Positions 13,980-41,701 of a stretch of DNA of 64,000 bases are shown piece by piece. The notes beneath the pieces were generated by a model. The model was not told the origin of the DNA. It saw nothing but the letters and a program-made list of their open reading frames with translations, and made no database searches. The first letter of the stretch is position 1; every line of letters starts with the position of its first letter. The stretch comes from Escherichia phage phiWec179, in sequence record LC739533.1, one strand, 5' to 3'. The position numbers and the translations under genes were made by a program.

Positions 13980-14483
13980 ATGGCTAAAAAAGTAGTAGAT
14001 GAGTTTGACATGTTGGCTGTTGATGAAGGACTGAAGCTGACTGTTTACCCAGACACCTTGGGATATTGGACAGTCGGCATTGGACACCTCTTAACTAAAA
14101 AGAAAGATAAGGCGGAAGCTATTCGTATTCTGGATGCTCTTGTTGGTCGCAAGACTAACGGAGTTATCACAGAGAAAGAAGCCCGTGCTATCTTTGCTGA
14201 CGATGTTGAAAAGGCGAAAAAACAGATTAAAAACAGTTCCATTCTTGCCCCAATTTATGATAAGGTGAGTGAAACCCGTAAACTGGCAATCATCAATATG
14301 GTGTTCCAGTTGGGGTTAACAGGAACGGAAGGCTTTAAAAATAGCTTGACTTTAATCAGTAATTCGTACTATACTCAAGCTGGTAAAAACATGAGAGCCA
14401 GTAAATGGTACTCTCAAACGCCAAACCGTGCAGAACGAGTAATCAAGGTTCTAACATCTGGGACTCTTGATTCTTACAACTAA
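13980..14483 (+). CDS. T4-type lysozyme (GH24 endolysin)
   Basis: DEGLKLTVYPDTLGYWTVGIGHLL..LINMVFQLG..SKWYSQTPNRAERVI closely parallels T4 lysozyme e. Confidence 0.9.
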   Translation: MAKKVVDEFDMLAVDEGLKLTVYPDTLGYWTVGIGHLLTKKKDKAEAIRILDALVGRKTNGVITEKEARAIFADDVEKAKKQIKNSSILAPIYDKVSETRKLAIINMVFQLGLTGTEGFKNSLTLISNSYYTQAGKNMRASKWYSQTPNRAERVIKVLTSGTLDSYN

Positions 14484-14520
14484 CAAAGGGGCGCAAGCCC
14501 CTTCTATAAGGAGTGCTACT

Positions 14521-15276
14521 ATGGGAAAAACAGCTACCGCTAAATCACCGCGCCAGAAGTTAGCTTCTAATGCGAAAGTAGAAAGTCGTTATGCTGCAAA
14601 AGCAGTTGGAAATGATGACTATCGTTTAGATGGGTTTTCACCAGAAGGAGATCAGCAGCAAATCGTTCAAAGTATGATCTGGAATGATCTTACAGTCGTA
14701 AATGCTCCAGCAGGGACAGGCAAGACTTCCGTGACTTTATGGAAAGCTTTGCAGATGCTTCGAGCAGGAGATTTCCGTAAGCTTCTTTTTATTAAAAACC
14801 CGACTGAAGTTGGTGATGATCAGATTGGTTTCCTTTCAGGAGATAAAACTGATAAACTGGCGGCGCACTACGAATCAACCAAACGAATCTTCCAGCAGTT
14901 TATGACTGCAAACAAATTAGAGAATGATATTGGTTCCGGTAAGATTGAACTTAATATCCCGAACTACCTACTGGGTGCTACCCTGGACAACACTATTGTG
15001 ATCATTGATGAAGCACAGCTTATGTCTCCAGAAACATTAAAACTTCTGGTAGAGCGTGCAGGGATCAACACTCATGTTGTTGTTCTTGGAGATGTTCGTC
15101 AAACCTACGCTATCAAGAAGCGTGCAAACGGTTTGAAAGATCTTCTTGACAAAGTTGCCCCTGAAGGTGAAGATGGTGTTCGTGTCCCTCTGGTAGACTT
15201 TATCGGTTATGTGCAGTTAACCACAGATGACAACAAACGATCTCGTTTGTCTAAGTTCATCACGGAAATTTATTAA
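14521..15276 (+). CDS. phoH: PhoH-like ATPase
   Basis: Walker A APAGTGKTS, Walker B VIIDEAQ; start at ATG 14521 with RBS aaggag. Confidence 0.85.
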   Translation: MGKTATAKSPRQKLASNAKVESRYAAKAVGNDDYRLDGFSPEGDQQQIVQSMIWNDLTVVNAPAGTGKTSVTLWKALQMLRAGDFRKLLFIKNPTEVGDDQIGFLSGDKTDKLAAHYESTKRIFQQFMTANKLENDIGSGKIELNIPNYLLGATLDNTIVIIDEAQLMSPETLKLLVERAGINTHVVVLGDVRQTYAIKKRANGLKDLLDKVAPEGEDGVRVPLVDFIGYVQLTTDDNKRSRLSKFITEIY

Positions 15277-15315
15277 TAACAAAAAAGCAAGGATGCTTTA
15301 TTAAAGGGAGGGTCG

Positions 15316-15813
15316 ATGGTACAGACAATTATAGATCGGACTGGTATTGATGAATGTTACCAAACTGGGCTTGTGAAGCCTAACGAGTTCCGACAGATTT
15401 GCGTGAATCATATTGAGAAAGAAATTGCACTAACTTTGGAGAACCTTACTCTCCGAGACAAGCTGTCAATGTTTGTGGCTTGGTGTAAAGGTGAAGATTG
15501 GTTATTGGCCCATTTTCAAGAACTTTCTGATAGTCAAGAAGGCTTATATGAATGTATAATAGGAATAGCTGGCTCCAATCCTGAACTTCTCCATTTGGAA
15601 GAAGAAGAGGCGAAGTTATTGTTCTTAAGCAACATGTTCAATCGTAAAGCATTGCTTGTTCGTGAGTGTAGTGATCTTTTAAATCATCCACTGGCGATCA
15701 CAAACGAAATACTGGTTGACAAAGAGACATTACGTGCGATAGACTATCTGCGCAAGTATGTCAACGGCGGGAAAGCAGTTCTTAAAACATTAACAGAGGA
15801 GGAAGCAGAATGA
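15316..15813 (+). CDS. hypothetical protein
   Basis: 165-aa ORF, RBS aagggagg. Confidence 0.55.
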   Translation: MVQTIIDRTGIDECYQTGLVKPNEFRQICVNHIEKEIALTLENLTLRDKLSMFVAWCKGEDWLLAHFQELSDSQEGLYECIIGIAGSNPELLHLEEEEAKLLFLSNMFNRKALLVRECSDLLNHPLAITNEILVDKETLRAIDYLRKYVNGGKAVLKTLTEEEAE

Positions 15814-16499
15814 CTACAATTATCGCAACCAAAAACAAGATCCTTAGCGACGGTAAAGTAACTTTCGGTGGTCGTGTAGATTCAACCAATTTCAAGAAAG
15901 TACGTAAGATTGGGGATTATCTCGTAGGTGGCGCAGGGCGTTTGACTTCGGTATTAGCTTTCTTCCAGTGGTTCGAACAGAACCTGCAATGTGAAGCGGC
16001 GCGTGAGGCAGTGCCTGGGTTGATGATCAGTTCTAACCCTGATCGTGAAGATGAAGAGTTTATTGCTCTCGTTGTTCACCCAGACGGACGTATTTTCCTG
16101 CATGAAGGTAATGATCCTACTCGTGCATACCCAATCGACGAAGAATACTACGCAGTAGGTAGTGGTTCCGATTTCGCGCTCGCAGCACTGGACGGCGGTG
16201 CTTCTCCAGAAGCTGCTATGGAGGTTGCCAAGAAGCGTGACGCATACTCCGGTGGCGAAACCTTCGTTGAAGAATTAGATGAGATCATTGAACTGACTGA
16301 CGAAGATCTCGAAAACTTCACCAAACAAGAACTGATCAACCTGCTCAAGTTTGGTGATCCTTCTGGTGAAGAAACTCCTCGTGACGTGGCAGGTGACGAG
16401 ACGGTAGAAGAAGAGGTTGCTGTAGAAAAAGACTTGACTTCTAAACCGGAAAATATTAATCTCGTAAACGTAGCGGATTTCGACAATCCCGCTGCTTAA
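15810..16499 (+). CDS. HslV/proteasome-like Ntn peptidase with acidic C-terminal tail
   Basis: MTTIIA (Thr nucleophile after Met), FKKVRKI, VGGAGR, AVGSGSDFALAAL parallel E. coli HslV blocks; extra about 60-aa acidic tail. Confidence 0.6.
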   Translation: MTTIIATKNKILSDGKVTFGGRVDSTNFKKVRKIGDYLVGGAGRLTSVLAFFQWFEQNLQCEAAREAVPGLMISSNPDREDEEFIALVVHPDGRIFLHEGNDPTRAYPIDEEYYAVGSGSDFALAALDGGASPEAAMEVAKKRDAYSGGETFVEELDEIIELTDEDLENFTKQELINLLKFGDPSGEETPRDVAGDETVEEEVAVEKDLTSKPENINLVNVADFDNPAA

Positions 16500-16504
16500 T
16501 AAAA

Positions 16505-16527
16505 CTGCCCCTTCGGGGGCATTTCTT
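16505..16527 (+). terminator. rho-independent terminator (GCCCC-TTCG-GGGGC)
   Basis: Hairpin plus T-rich tract after HslV-like gene. Confidence 0.5.
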
Positions 16528-16544
16528 ACACAGAGGAGATTATT

Positions 16545-16982
16545 ATGTTGAACGTTCCTGTTAAATTCGTCGATAGCTGTGTTAATGCTTACCAACAAAC
16601 TTGTAAACGTGCCTCAAACTGTTTGCAGTCTTTGATTCAAACGCGGTACGTGATCCAAAAGAAAAGAAAGTGGTTTGGTAAGGATTCTTATAGTGTTAAT
16701 GCGTTTGGGGAGTATCAACTCCAATATGACGATAACATGCAGCACATCTTAGAGTTTTTACTGATAAAAGATAAAATCTCCCCTGCGGATTACCAGTTAC
16801 TTAAATTCTACGATCAGAGTTTGTCTATTGAGGAAGTTATTGAAGATATCCTTTCTCGTAAGACAGATAAGAACACTATTGGTATTACAAACTTAGAGAT
16901 GCAATTGCTTAATGAGATCTTTTTGTTTGTGGAAGATGAGTCTGTAACTAAGGAGGAGCTTTTAAATGGCTTTAAGCTATGA
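16545..16982 (+). CDS. hypothetical protein
   Basis: 145-aa ORF, RBS gaggag. Confidence 0.55.
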   Translation: MLNVPVKFVDSCVNAYQQTCKRASNCLQSLIQTRYVIQKKRKWFGKDSYSVNAFGEYQLQYDDNMQHILEFLLIKDKISPADYQLLKFYDQSLSIEEVIEDILSRKTDKNTIGITNLEMQLLNEIFLFVEDESVTKEELLNGFKL

Positions 16983-17475
16983 TCGTCCAGAGTCCGATTA
17001 CTATCCGACTCCGCAAAAAGCGATTAACTCGTTATTTAGCATTATTGATTTTAAAAATTTGAAAGAGGAAGGATTTACATTTGCAGAACCGTGTAAAGGA
17101 CAAGCAGCGGCTATTTACCGTCACTTCCCTGAAGGTTCTCAGTATTGTGAGCTTGAAGAAGGTAAAGATTATTTTAGTCACGTATGGGAAAATCGTCCCG
17201 ACATTATAATCACTAACCCCCCGTTCAAGCTGGCATTAGAGTTCTTGGAAAAGAGCTTGAAAGAAGCAGACGTATCAGTCTACCTGCTTCGCTTGGGATT
17301 CCTTGAGTCAAAGAAACGTCGAGCGTTTCATCAAGAAAACCCACCTACGAATTTGATTGTACTCTCCGAACGTCCTTCGTTCGTAGCGGGTGGAACAGAT
17401 AAGACAGCGTATGCTTGGTACGTATACGATCCAAAACAAATTTTGGGTCTAACTCAACCATTTTATTTCGTTTAA
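16966..17475 (+). CDS. DNA N6-adenine methyltransferase (small phage Dam-like)
   Basis: DYYPTP and ITNPPF motifs. Confidence 0.75.
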   Translation: MALSYDRPESDYYPTPQKAINSLFSIIDFKNLKEEGFTFAEPCKGQAAAIYRHFPEGSQYCELEEGKDYFSHVWENRPDIIITNPPFKLALEFLEKSLKEADVSVYLLRLGFLESKKRRAFHQENPPTNLIVLSERPSFVAGGTDKTAYAWYVYDPKQILGLTQPFYFV

Positions 17476-17485
17476 GGAGCACACT

Positions 17486-17722
17486 ATGGCTAAATTTATT
17501 ATGACCGTTTCTATTGATTTTGATGATGAGGACGGAGGCATTAACTTAGGTATTGCTCAGAACCTGGAAGGGGATTTGAACCCGACAGAAGCAGCTATGG
17601 CGGTATTCTTTAAAGATGCCATAACAGCCACAGCAACGCATTCTGCAAATCAAACTGTAGATTACGGTAGCATGGTTCAAGCCTTGGTTGATGCTCAAAA
17701 CGGTGAAGATTGGGATGATTAA
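17486..17722 (+). CDS. hypothetical acidic protein
   Basis: 78-aa ORF, RBS aaggag. Confidence 0.5.
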   Translation: MAKFIMTVSIDFDDEDGGINLGIAQNLEGDLNPTEAAMAVFFKDAITATATHSANQTVDYGSMVQALVDAQNGEDWDD

Positions 17723-17925
17723 TGGCTTACAATTATTATTGCGTTTACGCAAATGAAGCAAAGAAAGGCGACACTGGCACTAATGTCTATGCAGAATCAG
17801 AAATACATGCAAAAGAAATTGGTGCGATCCTTCTGTCACGTTGGACAGGTGGTAACTATTCTGCTGCGGATTTGTTCGCAGAAATGGATGACACCATCCA
17901 AGAAGATACCATCACCACAACCTGA
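17722..17925 (+). CDS. hypothetical protein
   Basis: 67-aa ORF, ATGA-coupled to previous. Confidence 0.5.
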   Translation: MAYNYYCVYANEAKKGDTGTNVYAESEIHAKEIGAILLSRWTGGNYSAADLFAEMDDTIQEDTITTT

Positions 17926-17946
17926 TATTGCTTGAAGTAGTTGGTA

Positions 17947-17977
17947 CTCTCCTTGTTTCGGCAAGGAGGGTATTTTT
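17947..17977 (+). terminator. putative rho-independent terminator
   Basis: CTCTCCTTG/CAAGGAGGG stem (one mismatch) + TATTTTT. Confidence 0.4.
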
Positions 17978-17989
17978 AAGGAGGAAATT

Positions 17990-18181
17990 ATGCAGGAGAA
18001 TGAAGAGATAGTTGTTAAAAAGTTCCCGACACGTACACAGGCAGTCAACTTTGCCTCTGATTTGCTTTTGGATGTGGAAGGAGTTCTCATTAGACATGAA
18101 GGGGATTCCTGGAATGTCTCTTATAATGTAAACAGATCAATTATATATTTAGGAGAAGAGAACTTCTCTCGTATAGAGTGA
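17990..18181 (+). CDS. hypothetical protein
   Basis: 63-aa ORF, RBS aaggagg. Confidence 0.5.
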   Translation: MQENEEIVVKKFPTRTQAVNFASDLLLDVEGVLIRHEGDSWNVSYNVNRSIIYLGEENFSRIE

Positions 18182-18195
18182 TCGAAGGAGCAATT

Positions 18196-18768
18196 ATGCG
18201 TTCTACTTACACAGGTAAGATTAATTCTGGTATCATTTTAGCAGCAGCAGGAATCATCAGCAAAACTTTCAAAGTGGCAAACCTACCAGAGTGTGTAGAT
18301 TTTGACCACGTATTCAATCCATTAAATCCTTCTCGTTGTGTTGTTCGTAGCAACGTTGAGAATCCAAATGAGAACTTGTTTTATGTAACATCACCTTCAC
18401 AAAGTATTCTAAACCAAGTGGAGGCTAAAATTATTACCGAAGGTAGTTATTTCTCATTGCTACCTTGTAAATCGGTGGAGATTGAAGATAGTATCACCTT
18501 CGCAAATAACTTGGTCTTGACCATGTTCATGGTTTCTGATAAAGACTGTGGAGACGATATGGTTTTAGCTGTAAGGAATGTTTATGACACATTGGGTATT
18601 GCTTATAGCTGTAAGTTGTGCGATGATTATAAATCTTGTTCAGACTTTTACATAAATGGTGTTCGGGTATGCCGTGTTGAATCCTACTGGGTGCAAGACA
18701 CATACATAACAGTAGCGAACGTGATCAATGAACCTATGTTCAGCCACGCTTTAGCGTTAATCATTTGA
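18196..18768 (+). CDS. hypothetical cysteine-rich protein
   Basis: Start at ATG 18196 with RBS gaaggag. Confidence 0.55.
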   Translation: MRSTYTGKINSGIILAAAGIISKTFKVANLPECVDFDHVFNPLNPSRCVVRSNVENPNENLFYVTSPSQSILNQVEAKIITEGSYFSLLPCKSVEIEDSITFANNLVLTMFMVSDKDCGDDMVLAVRNVYDTLGIAYSCKLCDDYKSCSDFYINGVRVCRVESYWVQDTYITVANVINEPMFSHALALII

Positions 18769-18778
18769 GGAGGAAGGA

Positions 18779-19108
18779 ATGGAAATTACTACAGAACAGG
18801 CTCTTATCGACGAAGGGCGTAAAATCTTAGAGAAGCATTTGGGAGATATACATCAAACCCCTGGCTACTTAGGGTGGCGCATGGTTGAAGCTGTAGATTT
18901 CCTTCCTCGTACAAAACAAGACGTTGAAATGCGTTCTCTGTTCTTGCTTGTCAAAGTAGACGGGGATACGCCTTTCAAACTCGCAGCTTCACACATTGAG
19001 AAGGTGGAGGAGAAAGCTTATTCAGAGTTTGCCGAACTCGTATTACAGGAGGATCTCGAAGGGAAGGTAAACATTTTTATTTTTCTGGATTTTGAGGAGG
19101 AGATATGA
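18779..19108 (+). CDS. hypothetical protein
   Basis: 109-aa ORF, RBS gaggagg. Confidence 0.55.
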   Translation: MEITTEQALIDEGRKILEKHLGDIHQTPGYLGWRMVEAVDFLPRTKQDVEMRSLFLLVKVDGDTPFKLAASHIEKVEEKAYSEFAELVLQEDLEGKVNIFIFLDFEEEI

Positions 19109-19842
19109 TTTTATATAAAGAGATTACCGTGGAGCAGGATCAAGACCTCTTCATCATCGGGGACTTACATGGTTGCTACGATCTTTACTTGAAAGGTAAG
19201 AATTATCTTGGTATCCGAGATACAGATGTGGTTGTGTCTCTCGGAGATTTGACAGATCGCGGTAAACAAAACTTCAAATGTGTTGTGGAATTTACACGCA
19301 AAGAGAATCGTTATGCGCTTTGTGGTAATCACGAAGATATGATGATTAAAGGCTTACTGGAAGGGGATCGTCGTTACTACGAATGTTGGTATCAGAACGG
19401 TGGTCATACAGTGTTGGCAGAATGTGATGAAGAAGGCTCTACATTACTTGCTACGATGGTCGAGGACAACCCTGTGGTTTTGGTTGTGAATTACCGAGGT
19501 ATGAAGTTAGGGTTTATTCATGGCGGATATCCTTCCTCTTTTGAATATATTCCGCTGACAGACATACCGCACCTACGTATGAACAAAGCAAGAGAGGCTA
19601 CTTTTGCTGAAGCTTTGATGTGGGATCGTGACATGGTGGAGTGTGCTAAAGAAGGTATGAAACTTCCGGTTGTTATGGGTGTTGATTATGTGTTTCACGG
19701 GCACTCTTATGTGAAAGAACCTTTGATCAATGCTAATCGTGTTTATATGGACACTGGGTCTGTTTTCAATAACAACTTAACGTTTGCCTATTTTGATGCA
19801 GACGGTGGACTTCAGTTTTATTCAACTTTACAGGAGGATTAA
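19105..19842 (+). CDS. Ser/Thr protein phosphatase (PPP-family metallophosphatase)
   Basis: GDLHG, GDLTDRG, GNHE signature motifs. Confidence 0.85.
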   Translation: MILYKEITVEQDQDLFIIGDLHGCYDLYLKGKNYLGIRDTDVVVSLGDLTDRGKQNFKCVVEFTRKENRYALCGNHEDMMIKGLLEGDRRYYECWYQNGGHTVLAECDEEGSTLLATMVEDNPVVLVVNYRGMKLGFIHGGYPSSFEYIPLTDIPHLRMNKAREATFAEALMWDRDMVECAKEGMKLPVVMGVDYVFHGHSYVKEPLINANRVYMDTGSVFNNNLTFAYFDADGGLQFYSTLQED

Positions 19843-20135
19843 TGTATAAAATTACAATCGTAGAATCTGTGGGTGAGATTCGTAAAGAAATTATTCTGGA
19901 GACGGAAGATCTGGAACTGGTACGTGAAATCATAATTGGTAAGAATGTAGACAAGGTGGAGTCGGACGCACCCAACCTGATGATCGATGACCAATATGCA
20001 GAATTTCGTCGTATTTTTGAGGAAGAAAGGAAGAAGTGGGGCAAAGAACCAAACGTTTTTCGTCCTTATAATCCGTATCCTTCTGGTGATCCGTGGATCA
20101 TGACTAACAGAAACCCGTTTGAAATAACCTGTTGA
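19842..20135 (+). CDS. hypothetical protein
   Basis: 97-aa ORF, ATGA-coupled. Confidence 0.55.
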   Translation: MYKITIVESVGEIRKEIILETEDLELVREIIIGKNVDKVESDAPNLMIDDQYAEFRRIFEEERKKWGKEPNVFRPYNPYPSGDPWIMTNRNPFEITC

Positions 20136-20722
20136 GGTGGCCTATGAGCAACCTATTTTACACAGGCGTGGGAAGTCGAGAGATAACCCACGAAGAATGG
20201 GATTTAATGGTCGCTGTAGCAAAGTGGTTGGCTAACTGTGGTTTTACTTTACGTTCAGGTAATGCAAACGGTAGTGACTCTGCTTTCGAAACAGGTGTGG
20301 AAGAATCCAAAAACAAATCTCTCAAGGAGATTTATATCCCTTGGGAGAAGTTTGAAGGCAATGATATTCCAGGTGAGAAAATAGTTCTTGCTAAACCTGA
20401 CAGTATGAACTATGCTATCAGTCTCCAGTGGATAAAGGATATTCATCCGGCATTTGATAAATTGAAACAAGGTGCACGTAAATTGCATCAACGTAACGTT
20501 CATCAGGTGTTGGGACAAGATCTGGAGCATCCAATTCCTTCTTTGTTTTTACTGGCTTGTTCCAAAGAAGATAAGAAGGGAGACGTTATGGGTGGAACAC
20601 GGACGGCGTGGCTCATCGCTAAAGCTAATAACGTTCCATGTTTTAACTTACGTGGTAAAACAAAGGAAGAACTTTATGCTTTTCTTAAACCGTTGGTCAA
20701 GGGGGCAATCAGTGGCAATTAA
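20132..20722 (+). CDS. DprA/Smf-like (SLOG-type) Rossmann-fold protein
   Basis: TGVGSREIT..FTLRSGNANGSDSAFETGV resembles DprA GSR / SGxAxGxD blocks. Confidence 0.5.
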   Translation: MRWPMSNLFYTGVGSREITHEEWDLMVAVAKWLANCGFTLRSGNANGSDSAFETGVEESKNKSLKEIYIPWEKFEGNDIPGEKIVLAKPDSMNYAISLQWIKDIHPAFDKLKQGARKLHQRNVHQVLGQDLEHPIPSLFLLACSKEDKKGDVMGGTRTAWLIAKANNVPCFNLRGKTKEELYAFLKPLVKGAISGN

Positions 20723-21236
20723 GTTAAATCGTGCAAACGTAGGTAATCGTTTTAACCTTAGCCGTATAAACGAGGACGTAGATGTTACAGCAGATATTGA
20801 AAAAATCATGCAGGGTATTGTCCATCACGGTTTGCGTTTTGCCAGGGATTTGGTAATCTTCCGTTATGACGGAGAAGATGATCGTTCAAAGAATGATGGG
20901 ATTATCTTCGTAGATAAAGATTTAACCCAAGCAGATATTGAACAGATCAACCGTTATTTTATTGGTGTAGGGGATCTTCAAGACACGCAGCTTGCACGTA
21001 TGGCAGAAATTCTGGCGAATAAATTGTTGCAAGATATCGGAAAAGTTCTTGACAAAAATCCAAAACATGTTATAGTGACTATCCACAAAATGAGTTTTAT
21101 TAAGTATCTTAACAAACCTGGTAAACTGGGTTATGGATGGATACGCACAAGTGGACCACAAACCACTCTCGAAACCGAGATGTGCTATACAATTGAAGAA
21201 GTAAAACGTGAGGAGGAAGAGAATGGCGGAATTTAA
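20712..21236 (+). CDS. hypothetical protein
   Basis: Start uncertain: GTG 20712 (RBS aaggggg) or ATG 20808; the track start 20472 overlaps the previous gene. Confidence 0.4.
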   Translation: MAIKLNRANVGNRFNLSRINEDVDVTADIEKIMQGIVHHGLRFARDLVIFRYDGEDDRSKNDGIIFVDKDLTQADIEQINRYFIGVGDLQDTQLARMAEILANKLLQDIGKVLDKNPKHVIVTIHKMSFIKYLNKPGKLGYGWIRTSGPQTTLETEMCYTIEEVKREEEENGGI

Positions 21237-21513
21237 TGAAGTGAAAAGTTACGAAAGCAATTTCGTAAGCAATTGGGAAGCATGGGATGAGATGGGTGTT
21301 GGTGAACTCTATTTCTACAATGTAACCCTTCGTCCAGAATATCAACATCTCATTCCAGAAGGCACTGTGCAGATCGGTATGTTCATGTCTTCTCAAGACG
21401 GTGTTGTGCAGTTTGAGTTTTACTCTGACACAGAACAGAACGAATTCACTTATCGTGCATTCAATATCGTATTAGCTTTAGGAGAGGAGAAATTTTATGA
21501 CGACGAAGTATAA
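21223..21513 (+). CDS. hypothetical protein
   Basis: Start at ATG 21223 with RBS gaggagg. Confidence 0.5.
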   Translation: MAEFNEVKSYESNFVSNWEAWDEMGVGELYFYNVTLRPEYQHLIPEGTVQIGMFMSSQDGVVQFEFYSDTEQNEFTYRAFNIVLALGEEKFYDDEV

Positions 21514-21694
21514 AACAGTAGCAGAAGCACTGAAAGCAGCACACGAAGCCATTGCAGAAGCTGAACAATTGGCTGATGAAACTGGCACAAGTTTTCACTT
21601 CTCTGTTGAATATGGGATGGGTGGTACTTATGACCCAGAAGATGAGAACGAATACACTGGGACCAACTGGCACCCATCTTCCCTCGGTTGTTAA
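21497..21694 (+). CDS. small protein, member of tandem paralog triplet
   Basis: C-terminal W-x-SS-x-C motif shared with the next two ORFs. Confidence 0.5.
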   Translation: MTTKYKTVAEALKAAHEAIAEAEQLADETGTSFHFSVEYGMGGTYDPEDENEYTGTNWHPSSLGC

Positions 21695-21708
21695 TAAGGA
21701 GAAATAAA

Positions 21709-21927
21709 ATGAGTGATCGTAATGCACAAGCATTAGCAGACAAAGCAAAAGAAATCATGAAGCTTGTGGATGCACTGGCAGCAGAAGCAGAAAAGGAAGG
21801 TTTCGGTCTTAGCTTAGAAAACAATACAATCTGTTTTGAAGATTGGCAGTCTTCTGCTTGCTATGGCGAAGCTGATGATGGTTTCACCGTTGACTCTGAC
21901 GGTGTTTGGTATAGCAGTAATTGTTAA
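21709..21927 (+). CDS. small protein, member of tandem paralog triplet
   Basis: Ends WYSSNC; RBS aaggag. Confidence 0.5.
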   Translation: MSDRNAQALADKAKEIMKLVDALAAEAEKEGFGLSLENNTICFEDWQSSACYGEADDGFTVDSDGVWYSSNC

Positions 21928-21936
21928 GGAGGGATC

Positions 21937-22206
21937 ATGTCAGAAGGTAGTGCCTTAATCAAGGCAAAAGTTAAAGAGATGGAAGAATCACAACAGAAGT
22001 TCCGCAACGAGATTGAAGAGCTTTGTGAGCAGTTCCAAGAACAAGCGTGGATCGGTGATTACGGGAATGGGGAAACTTACTACCCAACAGGAACAAACGC
22101 AGAAGAACATTATCTCACCTATATCTGCGGAGACTATGATATTGAGATTGACGAAAACGGTCTGATGACCGAAGGTCTTTGGGTGTCTTCCTCGGAAATG
22201 TGCTAA
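21937..22206 (+). CDS. small protein, member of tandem paralog triplet
   Basis: Ends WVSSSEMC; RBS aaggagg. Confidence 0.5.
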   Translation: MSEGSALIKAKVKEMEESQQKFRNEIEELCEQFQEQAWIGDYGNGETYYPTGTNAEEHYLTYICGDYDIEIDENGLMTEGLWVSSSEMC

Positions 22207-22215
22207 TAAATAATA

Positions 22216-22237
22216 ACCCGCTTCGGCGGGTTTTTTA
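22216..22237 (+). terminator. rho-independent terminator (CCCGC-TTCG-GCGGG + T6)
   Basis: Perfect hairpin followed by TTTTTT. Confidence 0.6.
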
Positions 22238-22248
22238 TTGTGTGAGTG

Positions 22249-22277
22249 TTGACAAGACACGAAGAACCTGGTAGACT
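22249..22277 (+). promoter_or_regulatory. sigma70-type promoter TTGACA-17-TAGACT
   Basis: Consensus -35, 17-nt spacer, -10 TAGACT, about 30 nt before ATG 22306. Confidence 0.5.
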
Positions 22278-22305
22278 TGTCTCATCAACTAAGAGAGGAG
22301 GATAT

Positions 22306-23244
22306 ATGAAAGTATTAATCGGTAGTCGTGCGTTGGAAATGATTTGTCGTTCTCGTGGTGTAGAACTGTATCGTGCTTGCGTAGATCTGGATTACCTCTG
22401 CACTGAAGAAGAGTGGCAAGCAGAAGCCCAGAAATTCTCGAAAGATCGTTTCGTAGAAATTGTTGAACGTAAAGGTAACAAAGGGCATATCAAAATGATC
22501 GCGGGCGCTCATCTGGAATATGATATTGCACAACCAGGCGACTCTACAGATGCTTTGATTCAATACATCAAAGAGAATGCAGATCATCTGCCGCGTATTG
22601 GTTATGATGTGGTCGCGCCTTTGGATGTTTTATACCTTCTGAAGATGAGTCACCGTTTTAAGAAGGACAGTCCTCACTTCCTGAAAACAATGAAGGATAT
22701 CCACTTCATGCGTAACCTTGGAGCGAAGATCCCTGAAGAGTTGGAAGATACATACAAACTGCGTCAGAAGGAGTCCTATAATTACGGGCACCCTAATCTG
22801 AACGTGAAAAGTAAAGATTTCTTCAAGGGTGATGAAGTGCCTTATGTGTATGATCACGATAGCCTGCACAGAGTTTTAGCTGTAATGGAGGAACCAGCTT
22901 ACACGAACTACCTAAAGGATGGTAACGAGGTAATGACAAGTAAAGATAAGTTCTATGCTGTTGACGAAACTACCAGATTGCTTGGGGTGTTAGAGGAGAG
23001 TTTGGTTCTGGCTTCGGAAAGGTGTCTAATACCTTTCAACTACAGTGTTACAGGGAAGAAGGCATTTCTTATGGCTTTGACTAAAGTTTGCACTTCTATC
23101 ACATCGGGCTACTTTCGAGAATATGCTTATGAAAAGTTCTTCCTTGTGTGTAAGGTATACGATAATATGTATCCTAACGACGAGTGGGTGGATACGTTAA
23201 GACAAGCCATAGATAAGGGGGCTGTTGATGTATATAAAGCATAA
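22306..23244 (+). CDS. hypothetical protein
   Basis: Start at ATG 22306 (RBS agaggagg); track start 22246 would overlap the promoter. Confidence 0.6.
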   Translation: MKVLIGSRALEMICRSRGVELYRACVDLDYLCTEEEWQAEAQKFSKDRFVEIVERKGNKGHIKMIAGAHLEYDIAQPGDSTDALIQYIKENADHLPRIGYDVVAPLDVLYLLKMSHRFKKDSPHFLKTMKDIHFMRNLGAKIPEELEDTYKLRQKESYNYGHPNLNVKSKDFFKGDEVPYVYDHDSLHRVLAVMEEPAYTNYLKDGNEVMTSKDKFYAVDETTRLLGVLEESLVLASERCLIPFNYSVTGKKAFLMALTKVCTSITSGYFREYAYEKFFLVCKVYDNMYPNDEWVDTLRQAIDKGAVDVYKA

Positions 23245-23839
23245 ATATTTAGGAATCACAGACGAAGACTCCAAAGATGGAGAATTCGTCTACACGATCA
23301 CAGCAGCGAATGGATACTACCAGACCCGTATAGGGGGTTTATGGAGAGCTTTAAATGCGCGGGTAGGTAAGGGATCATACACAAACGTATGTGTAGATTT
23401 TAAAGATTTCAAAGAGTTTGCCGAGAGTGTAACAATATTAGCCAATTATAAAACATTAGATAGTTATGGGAACCACTATCACTTAGATAAAGACTTAAAA
23501 TGTTACAAGAAGGATAAATCTTACAACAAAGATTCAGTGCTGTTTATCCCTGGGCACTTAAATACCGCCTTGAAAGGTGTGATCCCTTACTTGGAGTGTG
23601 GGGCTACTTGTGGAGTCAGTTTTAGTAAGATTCGGAATAAGTTTCGAGCCTACTGTAATGATGGCGGTAGTAGACAGATACATTTAGGGTACTTCGAAAG
23701 TAAAGAAGCTGCTCAAAAAGCTTGGGTATTGGAGAAGATAAATCAAATAAAACGTTCCTTAATCAAAGAGAACATCTCGGACGAAGATATTTTGTATTTT
23801 ACGGGTGTTTTGATAAGCGATTTAGAAGGAGGTTATTGA
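23228..23839 (+). CDS. HNH homing-endonuclease-like protein with C-terminal AP2-type domain
   Basis: C-terminal GVSFSKIRNKFRAYCNDGGSRQIHLGYFESKEAAQKAW resembles AP2 domain; upstream GNHYHLDKD histidine-rich block. Confidence 0.5.
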   Translation: MYIKHKYLGITDEDSKDGEFVYTITAANGYYQTRIGGLWRALNARVGKGSYTNVCVDFKDFKEFAESVTILANYKTLDSYGNHYHLDKDLKCYKKDKSYNKDSVLFIPGHLNTALKGVIPYLECGATCGVSFSKIRNKFRAYCNDGGSRQIHLGYFESKEAAQKAWVLEKINQIKRSLIKENISDEDILYFTGVLISDLEGGY

Positions 23840-23840
23840 T

Positions 23841-24239
23841 ATGGGTTGGTGTGATCAGTCACAAAGTTACTTCAAAGTGACACATGTGGATCTCAACAAG
23901 GCAAGAGTGAAGCTGTTGAGTATTGAAAAAGAAACAGCAGCTATTGACAAACGCCTCCGAGAGAGTAAAGTGGTAATCACTTCTTGGTTCGGACTGAAAC
24001 GTAAAGTCCTCACGCAGCGAGAGCATGTAATTAAAAATATGCATGGTTGGGCTTGGTTCCACGACATGGCAAAACACCTGGGGTACATTTCTACTGAAGA
24101 ACACGACCTCTTGGAGCTACGTTATCGCCTTCCAGATGTAGAAGATTTAGATTTGTGGATCAGTTCCGAACAAATCTTCTTAACCGAGAGCGATTGGAAG
24201 AAAGTCAATATTTGTCTTAAATGGAGGGAGAATGAGTAA
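23841..24239 (+). CDS. hypothetical protein
   Basis: 132-aa ORF, RBS ggaggt. Confidence 0.55.
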   Translation: MGWCDQSQSYFKVTHVDLNKARVKLLSIEKETAAIDKRLRESKVVITSWFGLKRKVLTQREHVIKNMHGWAWFHDMAKHLGYISTEEHDLLELRYRLPDVEDLDLWISSEQIFLTESDWKKVNICLKWRENE

Positions 24240-24915
24240 AGTAGTTTTATCAACATTTGATGGATCTGGGATCATGGTACTTCGTTACGCAGAAGCGGGA
24301 CATAAATGCTATTGTGTAAATGCTGACGAAGGTGATCACGGGGCTTATGAAGTTCGCATGGAACATCCTAACATCACTTACGTGAACGCATGGATTGATT
24401 CCAACTTCAACCCTGAAGATTACGGTATTCCTAAGCCAGATATTATCTTTGGCTTCCCTCCATGTACCATGCTTGCTGGTTGCGGTAGTAAGCACGAACG
24501 TAGCGCAGAAGAGTTGGAAGAAGCTTTGGCTAACATTCGTATCGTGGAAGCTTTAGGAAATAAATACAACGTTCCGTGGATGATTGAGAATCCGGTGGGT
24601 AAACTGTCAACATTGTGGCGTAAACCGGATTTCTATTTCGATCCTTACGAATATGGCGGATATCTGTTTGATGAAGAAGGCAGCTTCCACCCTAAAATGC
24701 CTACCCGTGACGGTTACACAAAGAAAACCTGTATTTGGCATGGCAATGGTTTTGTTAAGCCTGTGAAGAAGCCTGTGGAACATATTGGTTGCTTCTGGGG
24801 CTGGAAAAGTTTAGGCGGAGCAAGTGCGAAAACAAAGCAACTCCGATCGTTAACTGCTCGCGGTTTTGCTCGTGCTGTGTTTTTATCTAACAACCTTTTA
24901 GATAAGGAGGAATGA
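24232..24915 (+). CDS. DNA (cytosine-5) methyltransferase-like protein (short form)
   Basis: FDGSG (motif I FxGxG), GFPPC (motif IV), MIENPVG (ENV motif VI); only 227 aa. Confidence 0.55.
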   Translation: MSKVVLSTFDGSGIMVLRYAEAGHKCYCVNADEGDHGAYEVRMEHPNITYVNAWIDSNFNPEDYGIPKPDIIFGFPPCTMLAGCGSKHERSAEELEEALANIRIVEALGNKYNVPWMIENPVGKLSTLWRKPDFYFDPYEYGGYLFDEEGSFHPKMPTRDGYTKKTCIWHGNGFVKPVKKPVEHIGCFWGWKSLGGASAKTKQLRSLTARGFARAVFLSNNLLDKEE

Positions 24916-25580
24916 TGACCCATTTAAAACCTTTTGGTGGAAAACCTATTGTGGCGTATCAAGTAGATCGTGATGATTGGGAAGGCAGTGTAGTTGTCTT
25001 TGGTAATCATTTCTTTGCTGTGCGTCGTAAAGGCGCAAGCATGTTAGATTGTGAGGAGGAGTATTGTCATGTCTCCCGTGCCAAAGAATTCGACCAGTAT
25101 GTAGAAAAAGGTTTTGTGCCTGTCAAAGCTTTACTGGAGGCAGGATGGTGGATACACTCTGCTCATGATGGTGTTAGACTTGACGAGTCTGTAGATAGTC
25201 TTGAGGCAGATTTTGACGAATGTGAAGATGGCATGTATATTGAGGGGGATCTTGTATTTTCCCTTGACGAGAAAAGTGTGTGGAAGAACTGGGAAGAAAT
25301 GGAACGTCACGCGCATTTTATCAATGATGCTTTGATTCGTAAAGCTTGGTTCACGGAGGCGGTGAAGGTAGCGTATCCGCAATTCACCTTTACAGAGGTT
25401 TGGGGCGGTCCACACCACATCACCCATACAGCATTTTTCGACTTCCCTGGTTCACGTTACAAAGGTAATGTAATGTGGGACTGGGATGAGAATGAAGTAC
25501 CATCTGTTCAAGACTTTCGTTGTTATGTTTGCCAAGGCGATCAAGAAGCCCTTGACAAATACCTGCAAAGTCTGGTATAG
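24912..25580 (+). CDS. hypothetical protein
   Basis: 222-aa ORF, RBS aaggagg. Confidence 0.55.
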   Translation: MMTHLKPFGGKPIVAYQVDRDDWEGSVVVFGNHFFAVRRKGASMLDCEEEYCHVSRAKEFDQYVEKGFVPVKALLEAGWWIHSAHDGVRLDESVDSLEADFDECEDGMYIEGDLVFSLDEKSVWKNWEEMERHAHFINDALIRKAWFTEAVKVAYPQFTFTEVWGGPHHITHTAFFDFPGSRYKGNVMWDWDENEVPSVQDFRCYVCQGDQEALDKYLQSLV

Positions 25581-25595
25581 TGCCAGCATCTGAAC

Positions 25596-25626
25596 AAAGC
25601 CTCCTGCTTCAGGGGGCTTTTCTTTT
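25596..25626 (+). terminator. putative rho-independent terminator
   Basis: AAGCCTCCTG/CAGGGGGCTT stem followed by T-rich tract. Confidence 0.45.
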
Positions 25627-25638
25627 ATGGGAGGAAAT

Positions 25639-26133
25639 ATGTTTCAAGTAGAAATTCATGTGCACAACAGTTGTTCAAATTGCGAAACTTGTGGTTACAA
25701 TAGTTCAACCATGATCACTGTTAGCGGAGACTTAGGACATGCCAAGTTTGGCGAAGTCGCAAGCTGCTTCAGCGGAGAGGATGCAGATTGGCATGATATT
25801 GCTTTGTGGCTATGCGGAAGACTGAATGTAAATTGTAAAGACTTCCCTGAACTGTTGAGCCGAAATCTTATTGATAGTCGGGAACAAGCCTACAATATTT
25901 ATGCCGCTTCTGTTTATGTTGATCATAAATGGGTAGAAGATGAAGAAGCTGAACGTTTGCTGCGCCTCTACTACGAAGCAGAGGAAGCTTATGATAACTA
26001 TTATAGCATGTCCAACATTCTACGCTTGTTTGCAGAGTTTGATATTTACTTTGAAGTGAGTTATTCTGAAGAGGAAGTGTATGATTTTGATGACGATGAT
26101 TACGAGGAGGATGAAGAATGCCAAGACGATTAA
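25639..26133 (+). CDS. hypothetical protein with highly acidic C-terminus
   Basis: Start at ATG 25639 (RBS gggagg); CxxC pair near N-terminus. Confidence 0.5.
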   Translation: MFQVEIHVHNSCSNCETCGYNSSTMITVSGDLGHAKFGEVASCFSGEDADWHDIALWLCGRLNVNCKDFPELLSRNLIDSREQAYNIYAASVYVDHKWVEDEEAERLLRLYYEAEEAYDNYYSMSNILRLFAEFDIYFEVSYSEEEVYDFDDDDYEEDEECQDD

Positions 26134-26918
26134 TAGTGATCAGCGGTGCTGGTCTAAGCGCCGATAGCGGTGTACGTACTTTCCGCACTGATACAGATAG
26201 CGGGAAAGCTTTGTGGGATGAATACGACCTTTCTGAAGTGTGCGATATTTTCAATTTCCGTGCTGGCTACCAGCAAGAACAATGTGTTCCTGGCGCTGCT
26301 GGTGGATTAGATGCAGAGGGATACAACCTCTACCGTAAAACTCACGACTTCTACAATAAACGTCGCGTAGAGATGGATAGTGTGTCTCCTAACGCTGCGC
26401 ATTACCAGATCGCAGAGTGGTTCCAAGAGTACGGCTGCGATCGTGTTATCAACATCACAACAAACGTAGATGATCTTCTGGAACAAGCAGGGGTTGTTCA
26501 TGAAGATGTTCTGCATGTTCACGGCTTCCTGCCTGAAGTGATTGTAGACAATAGAATCATCAAGGATGTTGGTTATGCTGCTATTGATGTAGATGATTAC
26601 AAGTATGTGAAGCCCAATGTAGTGTTCTTTGGGGAGACTGCCCCACTGTATAACGATATGTACCACATCTTAGACGGCTTGACGGCTCAAGATATGGTGG
26701 TTGTAGTGGGCTGCTCTAATCAAGTGATCAACTTCAACTGGGATTTGTTCCCAGCCCTCAACATAGGAACAAAGATGGTCGTAGTTAATCCTGGGGTTAA
26801 TTACGAAGAAACACTTCTCTATGAAGATCGTGGAGTTTTTGTTTACCGAGAAAAAGCTGCAACAGCCTTCAGTAATGAAGGTTTCATTAAAATGATCGAA
26901 GACCACTTAAACAAATAA
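26118..26918 (+). CDS. Sir2-like (sirtuin family) NAD-dependent protein
   Basis: GAGLSADSGVRTFR, catalytic HG, KPNVVFFGE, VVVGCSNQV sirtuin blocks; no Zn-binding Cys tetrad seen. Confidence 0.75.
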   Translation: MPRRLIVISGAGLSADSGVRTFRTDTDSGKALWDEYDLSEVCDIFNFRAGYQQEQCVPGAAGGLDAEGYNLYRKTHDFYNKRRVEMDSVSPNAAHYQIAEWFQEYGCDRVINITTNVDDLLEQAGVVHEDVLHVHGFLPEVIVDNRIIKDVGYAAIDVDDYKYVKPNVVFFGETAPLYNDMYHILDGLTAQDMVVVVGCSNQVINFNWDLFPALNIGTKMVVVNPGVNYEETLLYEDRGVFVYREKAATAFSNEGFIKMIEDHLNK

Positions 26919-26926
26919 ACCAACCA

Positions 26927-26948
26927 AGGGGCTACGGCCCCTTTCTTA
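26927..26948 (+). terminator. rho-independent terminator (GGGGC-TACG-GCCCC)
   Basis: Hairpin plus T-rich tract after Sir2-like gene. Confidence 0.55.
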
Positions 26949-26961
26949 TTAGGAGATTACT

Positions 26962-27234
26962 ATGCAACAAGAAACTTTCGATTTTTATCTCGCCAATTAC
27001 GTCTACTACTTCTCTAATGGTACACAGAAAGGGGAAGGCAACCTTTACCTGGCTACCAACACTGGAGCAGGTGTTCGTAAAGCCAATATTGATTTAGCAA
27101 GAGAAACAGTTCGCTCTGGACTGGAAGAGACGCTTGAAACTCCCGTTGTTGTGGTTATACAAACTATCAGTTACCTTGCAACTTGTACTAAAGAAGATTT
27201 TGAGGCTCCTCAAACGCAATCTAACGAAGCATAA
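26962..27234 (+). CDS. hypothetical protein
   Basis: 90-aa ORF, last gene of rightward block. Confidence 0.5.
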   Translation: MQQETFDFYLANYVYYFSNGTQKGEGNLYLATNTGAGVRKANIDLARETVRSGLEETLETPVVVVIQTISYLATCTKEDFEAPQTQSNEA

Positions 27235-41072: not shown

Positions 41073-41285
41073 TCACTTATTCATAGAAGCAGGAAGAATC
41101 GAATGACACTTCCTGCACACTTTCACTTTAACAAGATTATCACTCCCTTCTGCGTAAATCAAAGCTTCTTTCAACTTATTCCCACACGAACAATACTCTG
41201 TTAGGTCCAGGGGAACATCAAAAAGCCCGTAATCGCTCTCATATTGTTTCTTACACAACGAAACCACTCTTGTAAAGTAAGACAT
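41073..41285 (-). CDS. small zinc-ribbon protein
   Basis: CSCGNK..CRKCHS. Confidence 0.5.
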   Translation of the reverse strand: MSYFTRVVSLCKKQYESDYGLFDVPLDLTEYCSCGNKLKEALIYAEGSDNLVKVKVCRKCHSILPASMNK

Positions 41286-41288
41286 TTC

Positions 41289-41510
41289 TTATTCCTCGAT
41301 CACTTCTACATCCCAAGAGAAGAATACATAGTCACAACCTTCCCAAACATCATCCTCCAGGATCTCACAACCTTCCACTTTAGCCATCTCTTCTTGGGAA
41401 ACGAAGAATGTTTGCAGATCATCGCTGAAAAGGTGTGCTTCAACAACAAAAGGAAGCTGAACGTTCTCGAAACCTACATAGCCTGTAACATCAATAATCT
41501 TAATTTTCAT
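41289..41510 (-). CDS. hypothetical protein
   Basis: 73-aa ORF. Confidence 0.5.
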   Translation of the reverse strand: MKIKIIDVTGYVGFENVQLPFVVEAHLFSDDLQTFFVSQEEMAKVEGCEILEDDVWEGCDYVFFSWDVEVIEE

Positions 41511-41701
41511 GATGGTTCTCCTTTATAAAGTAAACCTCTTAGTTCGCATTCTGCCACCAATAGACGGTTGGCTTGATTGTCCATAGACACGTCTATCTCC
41601 ACACTCCAAGCATTAATATACACTTCGTTGATCTTTGCGTCAAGCATTTGTGCAACTAAAGCTACGGCTCCAGCATATTCAAGTTTGATCTCTATAATCA
41701 T
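41507..41701 (-). CDS. hypothetical protein
   Basis: 64-aa ORF. Confidence 0.5.
   Translation of the reverse strand: MIIEIKLEYAGAVALVAQMLDAKINEVYINAWSVEIDVSMDNQANRLLVAECELRGLLYKGEPS

Follow-up and report, generated by a model that had tools for sequence, protein, structure and literature searches.

Phage sirtuins resembling the one considered here have been described in two studies. A phage sirtuin clade and its gene neighbourhoods were delineated for V5, Mydo, Serratia BF and SP15 (Iyer, Burroughs, Anantharaman and Aravind, 2022; PMC9503650, section 3.7.3), and salt bridges were reported in place of the zinc ligands in the viral Sir2/CobB of Vibrio phages (Skliros et al., 2016; PMC5107563). 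No biochemical studies on the phage proteins discussed below were found in the literature.

Here, we analyzed a stretch of 64,000 nucleotides from Escherichia phage phiWec179 (LC739533.1; hereafter the window), in which positions 15810-26918 had preliminarily been described as a cluster of six host-modifying enzymes with an inferred functional link. All six ORFs were found where that description had placed them, on the plus strand (as are the other features of this region given below), and the fold calls for the proteins of the region all held after profile and structure comparisons. The 11.1-kb stretch was 100% identical in Escherichia phages phiWec181/186 (Stephanstirmvirinae), and about 65 further Stephanstirmvirinae records matched it at 60-80% nucleotide identity, the best of them covering 74-92% of its length; thus, the six ORFs are real genes. 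The same six product names are already present in the RefSeq records of PsgM04F and phAPEC8. The six enzymes are therefore already annotated in Stephanstirmvirinae, and both the sirtuin clade and viral sirtuins with replaced zinc ligands are already in the literature. On the other hand, nothing was found that joins the six into one NAD-centred counter-defence system. Our results favor, with a probability of roughly three in four, six independent accessory enzymes, which the subfamily has inherited as a syntenic block, rather than a functional system.

The last of the six genes (26118-26918) encodes a 266-aa CobB/SIRT5-class sirtuin belonging to a phage-specific clade without zinc cysteines. 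It matched Pfam SIR2 (PF02146) at 1e-19 (71.7 bits, cut-off 24) and CobB in the PDB at 2e-15, and hhalign against E. coli CobB gave a probability of 99.7% (1e-26). The clade alignment revealed invariant GAGxS, F22-R23, Y79/R82, TTNVD, H135-G136 and KPNVxFFxE; these include the NAD-binding Rossmann motif GAGxS...FR (GAGLSADSGVRTFR), the catalytic His (H135-G136), the FGE loop (F170-F171-x-E173) and the YxxR pair (Y79, R82), which aligns with the CobB segment FYNARR. GAGxS, FR, the catalytic HG, the FGE loop and YxxR are all shared with E. coli CobB and human SIRT5 (class III), from which the phage clade differs by the loss of the zinc cysteines, by TTN for TQN (TQNxD has become TTNVD, with Asn and Asp kept and Gln replaced by Thr in 28 of 28 sequences) and, in some members, by a variable small-domain insertion of about 25 aa. 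The absence of zinc-binding cysteines claimed for the Sir2-like protein was confirmed and holds for the whole phage clade: the only cysteines are those at positions 42, 56, 107 and 199, and between H135 and K165, where the Cys4 zinc module would lie, there are neither cysteines in this protein nor Cys columns in the clade alignment. Judging from these comparisons, the sirtuin is nearest to housekeeping CobB/SIRT5. We also considered a defence-type Sir2 NADase (ThsA, DSR1/2, Sir2-HerA or SPARSA) and rejected it, as the protein matched none of the known defence Sir2 models and, being a standalone protein of 266 aa, has no fused or linked sensor or partner domain of the kind seen in defence Sir2 NADases. 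PADLOC gave no ThsA, DSR or Sir2-HerA match; the candidate family PDC-S65 was its sole match, and a weak one (5.4e-4).

Compared with the clade of Iyer et al. (2022), the window sirtuin is 55-60% identical to Mydovirus and T5-like members and has the same invariant residues, but it is not located beside an RNA ligase, cREC, kinase or HAD gene. Instead, its gene is paired in a two-gene unit with that of an unrelated acidic protein of 164 aa (25639-26133; phrog_9509), whose N-terminus is Cys-rich and whose C-terminus is strongly acidic. The gene for this protein overlaps Sir2 by 16 nt and lies in the same hairpin-delimited segment, 3' of a promoter-like site, and the two genes appear to be co-transcribed. 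It was not found beside Sir2 in Klebsiella phage KpS8 or Salmonella phage gmork.

The YxxR pair of class III sirtuins reads acidic acyl groups. The zinc-less sirtuin may act on a negatively charged acceptor by NAD-dependent ADP-ribosyl-transfer chemistry, and its invariant YxxR pair would bind that acceptor. A succinyl- or malonyl-type acyl-lysine could be this acceptor, or an RNA 2'-phosphate, as proposed by Iyer et al. The latter proposal, in which the protein is a KptA/Tpt1-like remover of RNA 2'-phosphates serving RNA repair against host anticodon nucleases, is possible but doubtful here. The neighbourhoods described for the clade (PMC9503650) were reproduced, with Rnl1, cREC, AAA_33 and SIR2 near each other in KpS8 (full order: Metallophos, Rnl1, cREC, AAA_33, a 74-aa gene, SIR2 and DNA ligase) and Sir2 adjoining HAD_SAK_2 in gmork; the 56-59% identity of the window sirtuin to these clade members and its invariant Tyr/Arg pair, which could bind phosphate as well as carboxylate, also point in this direction. 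However, tblastn identified neither a T4-type RNA ligase nor an AAA_33 kinase in the window and about 95% of PsgM04F, and cREC and the phosphoesterase are encoded upstream at a distance of about 20 kb. Moreover, the acyl-lysine-binding FGE and YxxR are fully kept, and an ordinary deacylase fits equally well. It should be noted that the phage carries cREC, phosphoesterase, MazG and NADAR genes elsewhere, which keeps an ADP-ribose or RNA-end theme for the sirtuin alive.

The DprA/SLOG-like protein of the preliminary description (20144-20722) indeed has a SLOG Rossmannoid fold of the DprA clade, in a single domain of 192 aa. Its score against PF02481 (DprA) was 17 bits, under the Pfam gathering threshold of 29.6, and 24 of 33 homologues matched this family at E<=0.01. 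In contrast with the DprA/Smf Rossmann domain and the ShosA antitoxin, it is one 192-aa domain that remains sub-threshold in Pfam, and it has neither of the domains that flank this one in DprA, SAM and winged-helix (the predicted 192-aa model is single-domain). By these comparisons it is DprA-like and not ThsA/YpsA-like; it might bind ssDNA or a nucleotide via conserved GSR and RN motifs and act in recombination-dependent replication.

Two genes encode methyltransferase-like proteins. The first (16966-17475; phrog_799, 3e-54) is an N6-adenine-methyltransferase-like protein of 169 aa with motif IV NPPF and no target-recognition domain, matching PADLOC MTase_II at 6.9e-5 but Pfam EcoRI_methylase at no better than 0.075. 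Its homologues comprised 4,925 representative clusters, and the 150 matches listed were mostly 160-220 aa in length. Y13xTP, E41-P42 (EPxxG) and P85-P86 are invariant in the family, EPCxGxG (AdoMet motif I) is also present, and in NPPF N84 occurs in at least 90% of sequences, with F as the consensus. The N6-methyltransferase part of the earlier label "Dam-like N6-adenine methyltransferase" is borne out by these motifs, whereas "Dam-like" is weakly supported: among 49 homologues, weak Pfam matches were to EcoRI_methylase in 14 and to Dam in nine, and also to Eco57I and N6_Mtase. The second protein (24232-24915), noted before as a very short C5-cytosine-methyltransferase-like protein, has 227 aa, the C5 fold and motifs I, IV and VI, with a vestigial target-recognition region. 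DGSG (motif I), FPxCT (C78, motif IV) and ENPVG (motif VI) were invariant among 27 sequences, and the F of FDGSG was found in at least 90% of them. Neither the protein nor the 27-sequence profile had a significant match in Pfam or PDB. Structural comparison aligned 176-186 of its 227 residues with C5 methyltransferases (DNMT3 catalytic domain, M.HhaI and prophage 3g7u), with which it shares motif I, the catalytic Cys of motif IV, the ENP of motif VI and a motif IX-like helix; it differs in having only about 30 residues at the site of the target-recognition domain (motifs VIII-IX) and no clear motif X.

Against restriction, the genome mainly relies on extreme palindrome avoidance, lacking every CTAG and 27 of 64 six-base palindromes. 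GATC (1.08 times the Markov expectation) and CCWGG (about 1.1 times) are both retained. In addition, a homologue of the C5-like gene is carried by Vequintavirinae and relatives, which were reported to be exceptionally sensitive to restriction-modification systems (PMC8594841). Because of this site avoidance and the sensitivity of relatives with the C5 homologue, the anti-restriction role suggested earlier for the methyltransferases, although plausible, is probably narrow. The two core-only enzymes may be orphan DNA methyltransferases of short or relaxed specificity that top up methylation of the fast-replicating phage DNA at unpurged sites, such as the retained GATC and CCWGG.

The PPP-family Ser/Thr phosphatase (19105-19842; 245 aa) was confirmed: Pfam Metallophos was matched above its cut-off (1.7e-11, 45.4 bits versus 21.5) and all three PPP motifs (GDLHG, GDLTDRG and GNHE) are present. 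The match to NCBIfam PRK11439 (6.7e-24) was under the cut-off. The protein shares all PPP metal-binding motifs with lambda NinI and E. coli PrpA and PrpB, belongs to the NinI-like phrog_246 (1.3e-72) and shows no notable difference from them. By analogy with lambda phosphatase, it would reverse host Ser/Thr/Tyr phosphorylation.

Counter-defence genes are often found in the early accessory regions of phages, which speaks against reading these genes as independent. The preliminary description had favored such an island for counter-defence or host takeover, in which the sirtuin and the SLOG protein act on NAD+/ADP-ribose immune signaling (Thoeris, DSR, CBASS-like) and the methyltransferases on restriction; we consider it improbable. 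According to predictions by Iyer et al. (2022; PMC9503650), cADPR-like signals are broken down by viral SLOG domains, and Macro, NADAR and SLOG domains act against small ADP-ribose messengers; a NADAR protein is encoded by the same phage (62917-63444). The region also has signs of an accessory region: its small genes are only 31-55% identical to their phAPEC8 counterparts, and an HNH/AP2-type homing endonuclease gene (23228-23839; phrog_953, 1.8e-25; AP2 match weak), which follows a gene for a DUF7277 and DUF7275 protein (22306-23244; Pfam DUF7275 1.6e-67, DUF7277 1.1e-8), is an insertion relative to close relatives, missing at the equivalent position in PsgM04F and phAPEC8. However, the NADAR gene is on the opposite strand at a distance of about 36 kb, the SLOG protein is not of the YpsA-like clade tied to NAD signaling by Iyer et al. 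(PMC9503650), and the CobB-like sirtuin matched no known defence Sir2 model, so that the case for NAD+/ADP-ribose counter-defence is weak. The restriction sensitivity of phages with the C5 homologue (PMC8594841) and the lack of co-occurrence of the families outside this lineage further argue against it.

The cluster reading is not supported by the layout of the region either. We found 20 terminator-like hairpins, versus 10.8 +/- 2.8 in shuffles, and predicted elements of this kind split the 11-kb region into at least four segments. One follows the HslV-like gene (16506-16521); another (22215-22232), at a place where phAPEC8 has an annotated putative terminator, is followed by a promoter-like site (22249-22277); a strong one with an 11-bp stem (25596-25620) precedes the 164-aa/Sir2 unit, with a promoter-like site at 25552-25581; and one lies directly 3' of Sir2 (26926-26943). 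Furthermore, Sir2 is 95.8% identical to phAPEC8 at the nucleotide level versus 71-81% in its flanks, and it thus moves as its own cassette.

The first of the six genes (15810-16499) encodes an N-terminal-threonine peptidase of 229 aa. Its description as an HslV-like Ntn peptidase with an acidic tail proved correct: it matched Pfam Proteasome (1.2e-5), phrog_1040 (3.5e-59) and, as top PDB match, T. maritima HslV (1m4y, 1.4e-8); Thr2 (MTT start), Asp14, Lys30 and G117-S118-G119 are kept in phage homologues, with Asp14, Lys30 and G117-S118-G119 invariant among six aligned sequences; and residues 151-229 contain 24 D+E versus 5 K+R. The NCBIfam HslV match (6.9e-8, 32.4 bits) was under the cut-off of 137, that is, below equivalog level. 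With bacterial HslV (ClpQ), its best PDB and NCBIfam match, it shares the N-terminal Thr, Asp17, Lys33 and GSG positions, but it is only about 26% identical, has a C-terminal acidic extension of about 70 aa and has no phage HslU. In other phages the extension is longer (proteins of 277-304 aa). The reported absence of a partner HslU was upheld, as tblastn with E. coli HslU (E<=10) gave only noise in the 64-kb window and in the close relative PsgM04F, about 95% of whose genome was covered; hslU is present in the E. coli host. The protein might form an active Thr-protease ring that uses host HslU or acts unassisted. That it instead forms a proteasome-like machine, with HslU replaced by a phage AAA+ ATPase or by the 165-aa product of the gene overlapping its start (15316-15813; phrog_14834), is very unlikely. 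PsgM04F does encode a classical AAA ATPase (41112-42251; PF00004, 3.5e-9; 100% identical in phiWec181), and in each of four phage groups (three distant phages) the HslV-like gene is directly preceded by a gene of about 150 aa. However, these upstream genes belong to different PHROGs with mutual identity of 13-14% and so do not reveal a conserved partner, and the ATPase has no tblastn similarity to HslU, ends in SSVF rather than an HbYX-type tail, is encoded tens of kilobases away and, outside Escherichia phages, is mainly a protein of Enterococcus, Bacillus and Staphylococcus phages, unlike the HslV-like family (Vibrio, Aeromonas, Rhizobium and Caulobacter phages).

The reading as independent accessory enzymes draws on the distribution of their families as well. 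Among 50,697 phage genomes, in which five of the six families were counted, the HslV-like family was found in 193 records, the small methyltransferase in 531, Sir2 in 978, the DprA-like family in 1,428 and the C5-like family in 1,489, and the five differ in host and genus profiles. Gene contexts differ too; for example, the C5-like gene is elsewhere part of the replication region of a lambdoid prophage, and it also occurs in an Erwinia phage of about 51 kb with a T1-type holin. Klebsiella phage KP13-16, a distant relative, has a compact order of PhoH, an unknown gene, HslV-like, phosphatase, an unknown gene, DprA-like and small methyltransferase genes; since part of the set is kept together there, a selective reason for linkage may exist. 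Taken together, these differing counts, profiles and neighbours, the hairpins that split the region and the separate Sir2 cassette indicate that the six families are independent. Positions 15810-26918 would thus represent the distal part of a long co-directional block of non-structural genes in a Stephanstirmvirinae myovirus, coming after the nucleotide-metabolism, lysozyme and PhoH genes, in which six enzymes, each from a widespread and already annotated phage family, sit among about 20 small genes. Their grouping is no more than expected in the non-structural half of a phage of about 150 kb.

The preliminary description had read the genes between 15810 and 26918 as a cluster of host-modifying enzymes. 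Family and fold checks confirmed that all six enzymes are present, and to that extent the reading was supported, whereas the evidence argues that they do not form one functional cluster. This is because terminator-like hairpins divide the stretch, the families occur in unlike numbers and in unlike genomic contexts, the Sir2 gene has been exchanged separately, the Sir2 protein is not of a defence type and the SLOG protein is DprA-like. As annotation, the six-gene set was known before: identical product names for all six stand in the phAPEC8 RefSeq record, whose notes record similarity to rV5 and PVP-SE1, and in phage PsgM04F.

Nucleotide searches showed that the 11.1-kb stretch is identical (100%) in phiWec181 and phiWec186 and 95% identical in phiWec188, phiWec190 and 'Pseudomonas' phage PsgM04F; a new genus, 'Wecvirus', has recently been proposed for the phiWec phages (PMC12695924). 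About 65 more Stephanstirmvirinae genomes, including phAPEC8, had 60–80% nucleotide identity, the best covering 74–92% of the stretch. Every gene from ∼13980 to 27234 lies on the + strand, where a long non-structural block draws to its close. In this block the stretch is preceded by genes for exonuclease, thymidylate synthase, ribonucleotide reductase, sugar-nucleotide enzymes, lysozyme and PhoH, in that order, and at ∼27.2 kb the block meets a convergent one on the minus strand, made up of dozens of small genes. The megablast match was broken into two pieces because of the insertion of an HNH/AP2-type homing endonuclease gene (23228–23839), which is located between the DUF7275 gene and the one that follows it and is not present at the equivalent position in PsgM04F or phAPEC8. 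It should be noted that a 190-aa protein (18196–18768) is labelled 'histidyl tRNA synthetase' in related records via phrog_4806, as is a second PsgM04F gene (locus L009, 30306–30869). No match to the 190-aa protein was found in Pfam or NCBIfam, and the label looks unreliable.

Between genes, terminator-like hairpins were found at 16506, 22215, 25596 and 26926, and the 11 kb therefore comprises at least four segments. Such sites were more numerous than in shuffled sequences (20 versus 10.8 ± 2.8), two of the hairpins (22215 and 25596) have promoter-like sites close by, and for the first of these two a putative terminator is annotated at the matching place in phAPEC8. Five of the six families were searched in 50,697 phage records: the HslV-like family occurred in 193, the small methyltransferase in 531, Sir2 in 978, the DprA-like protein in 1,428 and the C5-like methyltransferase in 1,489, a spread of almost one order of magnitude, and host profiles also differed. 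Elsewhere, the C5-like gene resides in the replication region of a lambdoid prophage, and also in an Erwinia phage of ∼51 kb that has a T1-type holin. In the distant relative KP13-16, a Klebsiella phage, part of the set lies close together (in sequence, PhoH, unknown gene, HslV-like, phosphatase, unknown gene, DprA-like and the small methyltransferase), as vertical inheritance predicts, yet this subset leaves room for a selective link.

The claim of an HslV-like peptidase (15810–16499) lacking its partner HslU was upheld. The protein matched Pfam Proteasome (1.2e-5), phrog_1040 (3.5e-59), solved HslV structures (1.4e-8) and, far under the equivalog cut-off, NCBIfam HslV (6.9e-8); its N-terminal Thr, Asp, Lys and GSG loop are conserved relative to E. 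coli HslV and phage homologues. A tblastn search with E. coli HslU covered the window and the fetched ∼95% of the PsgM04F genome, and revealed no HslU. Residues 151–229 contain 24 acidic and 5 basic residues. Homologues in Klebsiella (KP13-16), Vibrio (10AMN) and Aeromonas (PhAER-3) phages have 277–304 aa, with an additional C-terminal region beyond a common acidic linker (LT.E..E..K.EL...FGEE), and the tail of the window protein is thus a shortened form of this longer region. Two other candidate partners were rejected. A gene of ∼150 aa lies directly upstream of the HslV-like gene in the same three phages, and these upstream genes belong to different PHROGs, with 13–14% identity and no homology detected between groups. 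A classical AAA ATPase (PF00004; PsgM04F L009, 41112–42251, ∼1 kb past the window end) adjoins an 'endonuclease' gene and is also present in Herelleviridae-like phages of Gram-positive hosts, and is named 'FtsH-like protease' in some records; it is not HslU-like and its phage distribution differs from that of the HslV-like family.

The phosphatase (19105–19842) is a textbook PPP enzyme. The DprA-like protein (20144–20722) belongs to the DprA clade by sequence: Pfam DprA was matched by 24 of 33 homologues and YpsA by none of the 33, and it can be aligned to DprA through its VGSR and SGxAxGxD motifs. The idea that this SLOG protein acts on NAD+- or nucleotide-based immune signals was not borne out, the protein being DprA-like and not a ThsA- or YpsA-like sensor. 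Viral SLOG domains have been treated by Iyer et al. 2022 (PMC9503650).

The small methyltransferase (16966–17475, 169 aa) belongs to phrog_799, a family of at least 4,925 representative clusters, mostly 160–220 aa in length among the 150 listed. Its YxTP, EPxxG and NPPF motifs are invariant or almost so. Homologues matched several N6-adenine methyltransferase families of Pfam weakly (EcoRI_methylase, 14 of 49; Dam, 9 of 49), and therefore 'N6-adenine-methyltransferase-like, core only' is a fair name; the N6-adenine-like core of the earlier 'Dam-like' assignment stands, whereas the Dam label itself is only loosely supported. For the C5-like methyltransferase (24232–24915), 27 family members all share motifs I, IV (Cys78), VI and IX without variation, and only ∼30 residues occupy the place where a target-recognition domain would stand. 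Adjoining genes were rejected as a specificity subunit, since the neighbours are unrelated in the Serratia and Erwinia phage Snitter homologues. Compared with its phAPEC8 counterpart, this protein has 93.8% amino-acid and 81% nucleotide identity, and ∼60% identity is maintained across very different phages and prophages. Sequence comparison points to what may be unusually strong purifying selection, considering that it is an orphan methyltransferase.

We also examined the occurrence of restriction sites. CTAG is absent from the 64,000-nt window, where base composition predicts 237 and a Markov model 108. Of the 64 six-base palindromes, 27 are missing, versus 2.6% of non-palindromic hexamers, and GGCC and CCGG occur at 0.27x and 0.43x. 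On the other hand, neither GATC (410 observed, 381 Markov-expected; 1.73 times base composition) nor CCWGG (118 versus 108 Markov-expected) is avoided. PsgM04F shows the same palindrome pattern genome-wide, with no CTAG over ∼116 kb (L003, L008 and L009). The 13.7-kb phAPEC8 locus contains 17 CTAG, and complete loss of this site therefore seems to be a trait specific to the 'Wecvirus' lineage. These counts fit passive avoidance of sites as the phage's probable principal strategy against restriction. Dam- or Dcm-type sites would then be left to the two core-only methyltransferases, an assignment that we infer, and the anti-restriction role suggested for them is tenable to that degree. Broad protection is a different matter: Vequintavirinae, together with relatives, are reported to be extraordinarily susceptible to restriction-modification systems (BASEL study, PMC8594841), and one of these sensitive phages, MaxTheCat, carries a homologue of the C5-like gene (48% identity), which argues against it.

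The sirtuin (26118–26918) matched Pfam SIR2 (1e-19), E. coli CobB (2e-15; hhalign 99.7%) and SIRT5. We aligned 28 diverse clade members from Phapecoctavirus, T5-like phages (for example, gmork) and a further group to which Klebsiella phage KpS8 and Raoultella phage Ro1 belong. No cysteine occurs at the zinc positions in any of them, in agreement with the sirtuin fold without zinc cysteines described previously; the GAGxS, FR, YxxR pair, HG pair and FGE loop elements are invariant, and TTN replaces TQN. Viral Sir2/CobB of Vibrio phages have been compared with bacterial CobB, with the zinc ligand sites marked as replaced by salt bridges on the viral side and T5 and other phages listed as carriers (Skliros et al. 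2016, PMC5107563). The proposed defence-related NAD+ activity found no support, as the window sirtuin has no similarity to known defence-type Sir2 profiles.

Iyer et al. 2022 (PMC9503650) defined the phage sirtuin clade and proposed a KptA-like RNA-repair role from neighbourhoods with RNA ligase, cREC, kinase, MazG or HAD genes. Such contexts are seen in KpS8 (Metallophos, Rnl1, cREC, AAA_33, 74-aa gene, SIR2, DNA ligase) and in gmork, where Sir2 adjoins HAD_SAK_2. For the present phage this context was rejected: a tblastn search of the window and the fetched ∼95% of PsgM04F revealed no T4-type RNA ligase (Rnl1), AAA_33 kinase or NAPRTase, so that the RNA-repair idea is without its ligase here, and cREC, phosphoesterase, DNA ligase and MazG genes are present at a distance of ∼20 kb upstream. 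In PsgM04F, just upstream of where the window starts (L008, 4902–6315), cREC (PF20274, 60% identity to that of KpS8) lies together with genes for a calcineurin-like phosphoesterase, a DNA ligase that is ATP-dependent and a MazG-like pyrophosphohydrolase, with no RNA ligase or kinase beside them, and this group appears to be what is left of the RNA-end-processing neighbourhood found around Sir2 in KpS8. A NADAR-domain protein (62917–63444, minus strand; Pfam 1.2e-33) of an ADP-ribose-processing family is encoded at a distance of ∼36 kb from the sirtuin, on the other strand, and is homologous to the NADAR protein encoded near Sir2 in KpS8. With all acyl-lysine elements kept in the sequence, an ordinary CobB-like deacylase would fit equally well.

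The Sir2 gene shares 95.8% nucleotide (98.5% amino-acid) identity with its phAPEC8 counterpart (L013, 11447–12247), compared with 71–81% nucleotide identity for the flanking genes, and was therefore exchanged on its own; the allele in other Phapecoctavirus members has ∼80% amino-acid identity. This suggests a probable recent recombination of the gene between genera. Within the same hairpin-delimited segment, a 164-aa gene (25639–26133, + strand) overlaps Sir2 by 16 nt and encodes a protein with a Cys-rich N-terminus and 18 acidic residues among the 40 at its C-terminal end. It is absent beside Sir2 in KpS8 and gmork and was thus rejected as a conserved partner. We give a chance of roughly one in ten to the reading that the sirtuin and this apparently co-transcribed partner form a mobile two-gene cassette, its sirtuin gene recently exchanged between genera, whose enzyme would serve counter-defence by using its acidic-group pocket on a non-lysine acceptor. 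Candidate acceptors would be an RNA 2'-phosphate or ADP-ribosylated or phosphorylated nucleic acid. If true, the protein would belong to a type of counter-defence enzyme that no sirtuin has so far been shown to be.

As a cluster, the six genes are of little importance, being publicly named and, on this analysis, not a single system. The individual families deserve biochemistry, as they are abundant and literature searches found no experimental or biochemical work on them, including the sirtuins, HslV and DprA-like proteins. The HslV without HslU merits such attention, as do the single-domain DprA (∼1,430 phage genomes), the C5 methyltransferase without target-recognition domain (∼1,490) and the zinc-less phage-specific class III sirtuin (∼980), whose substrate is the point at issue in the 2022 proposal, namely RNA 2'-phosphate removal versus protein deacylation.
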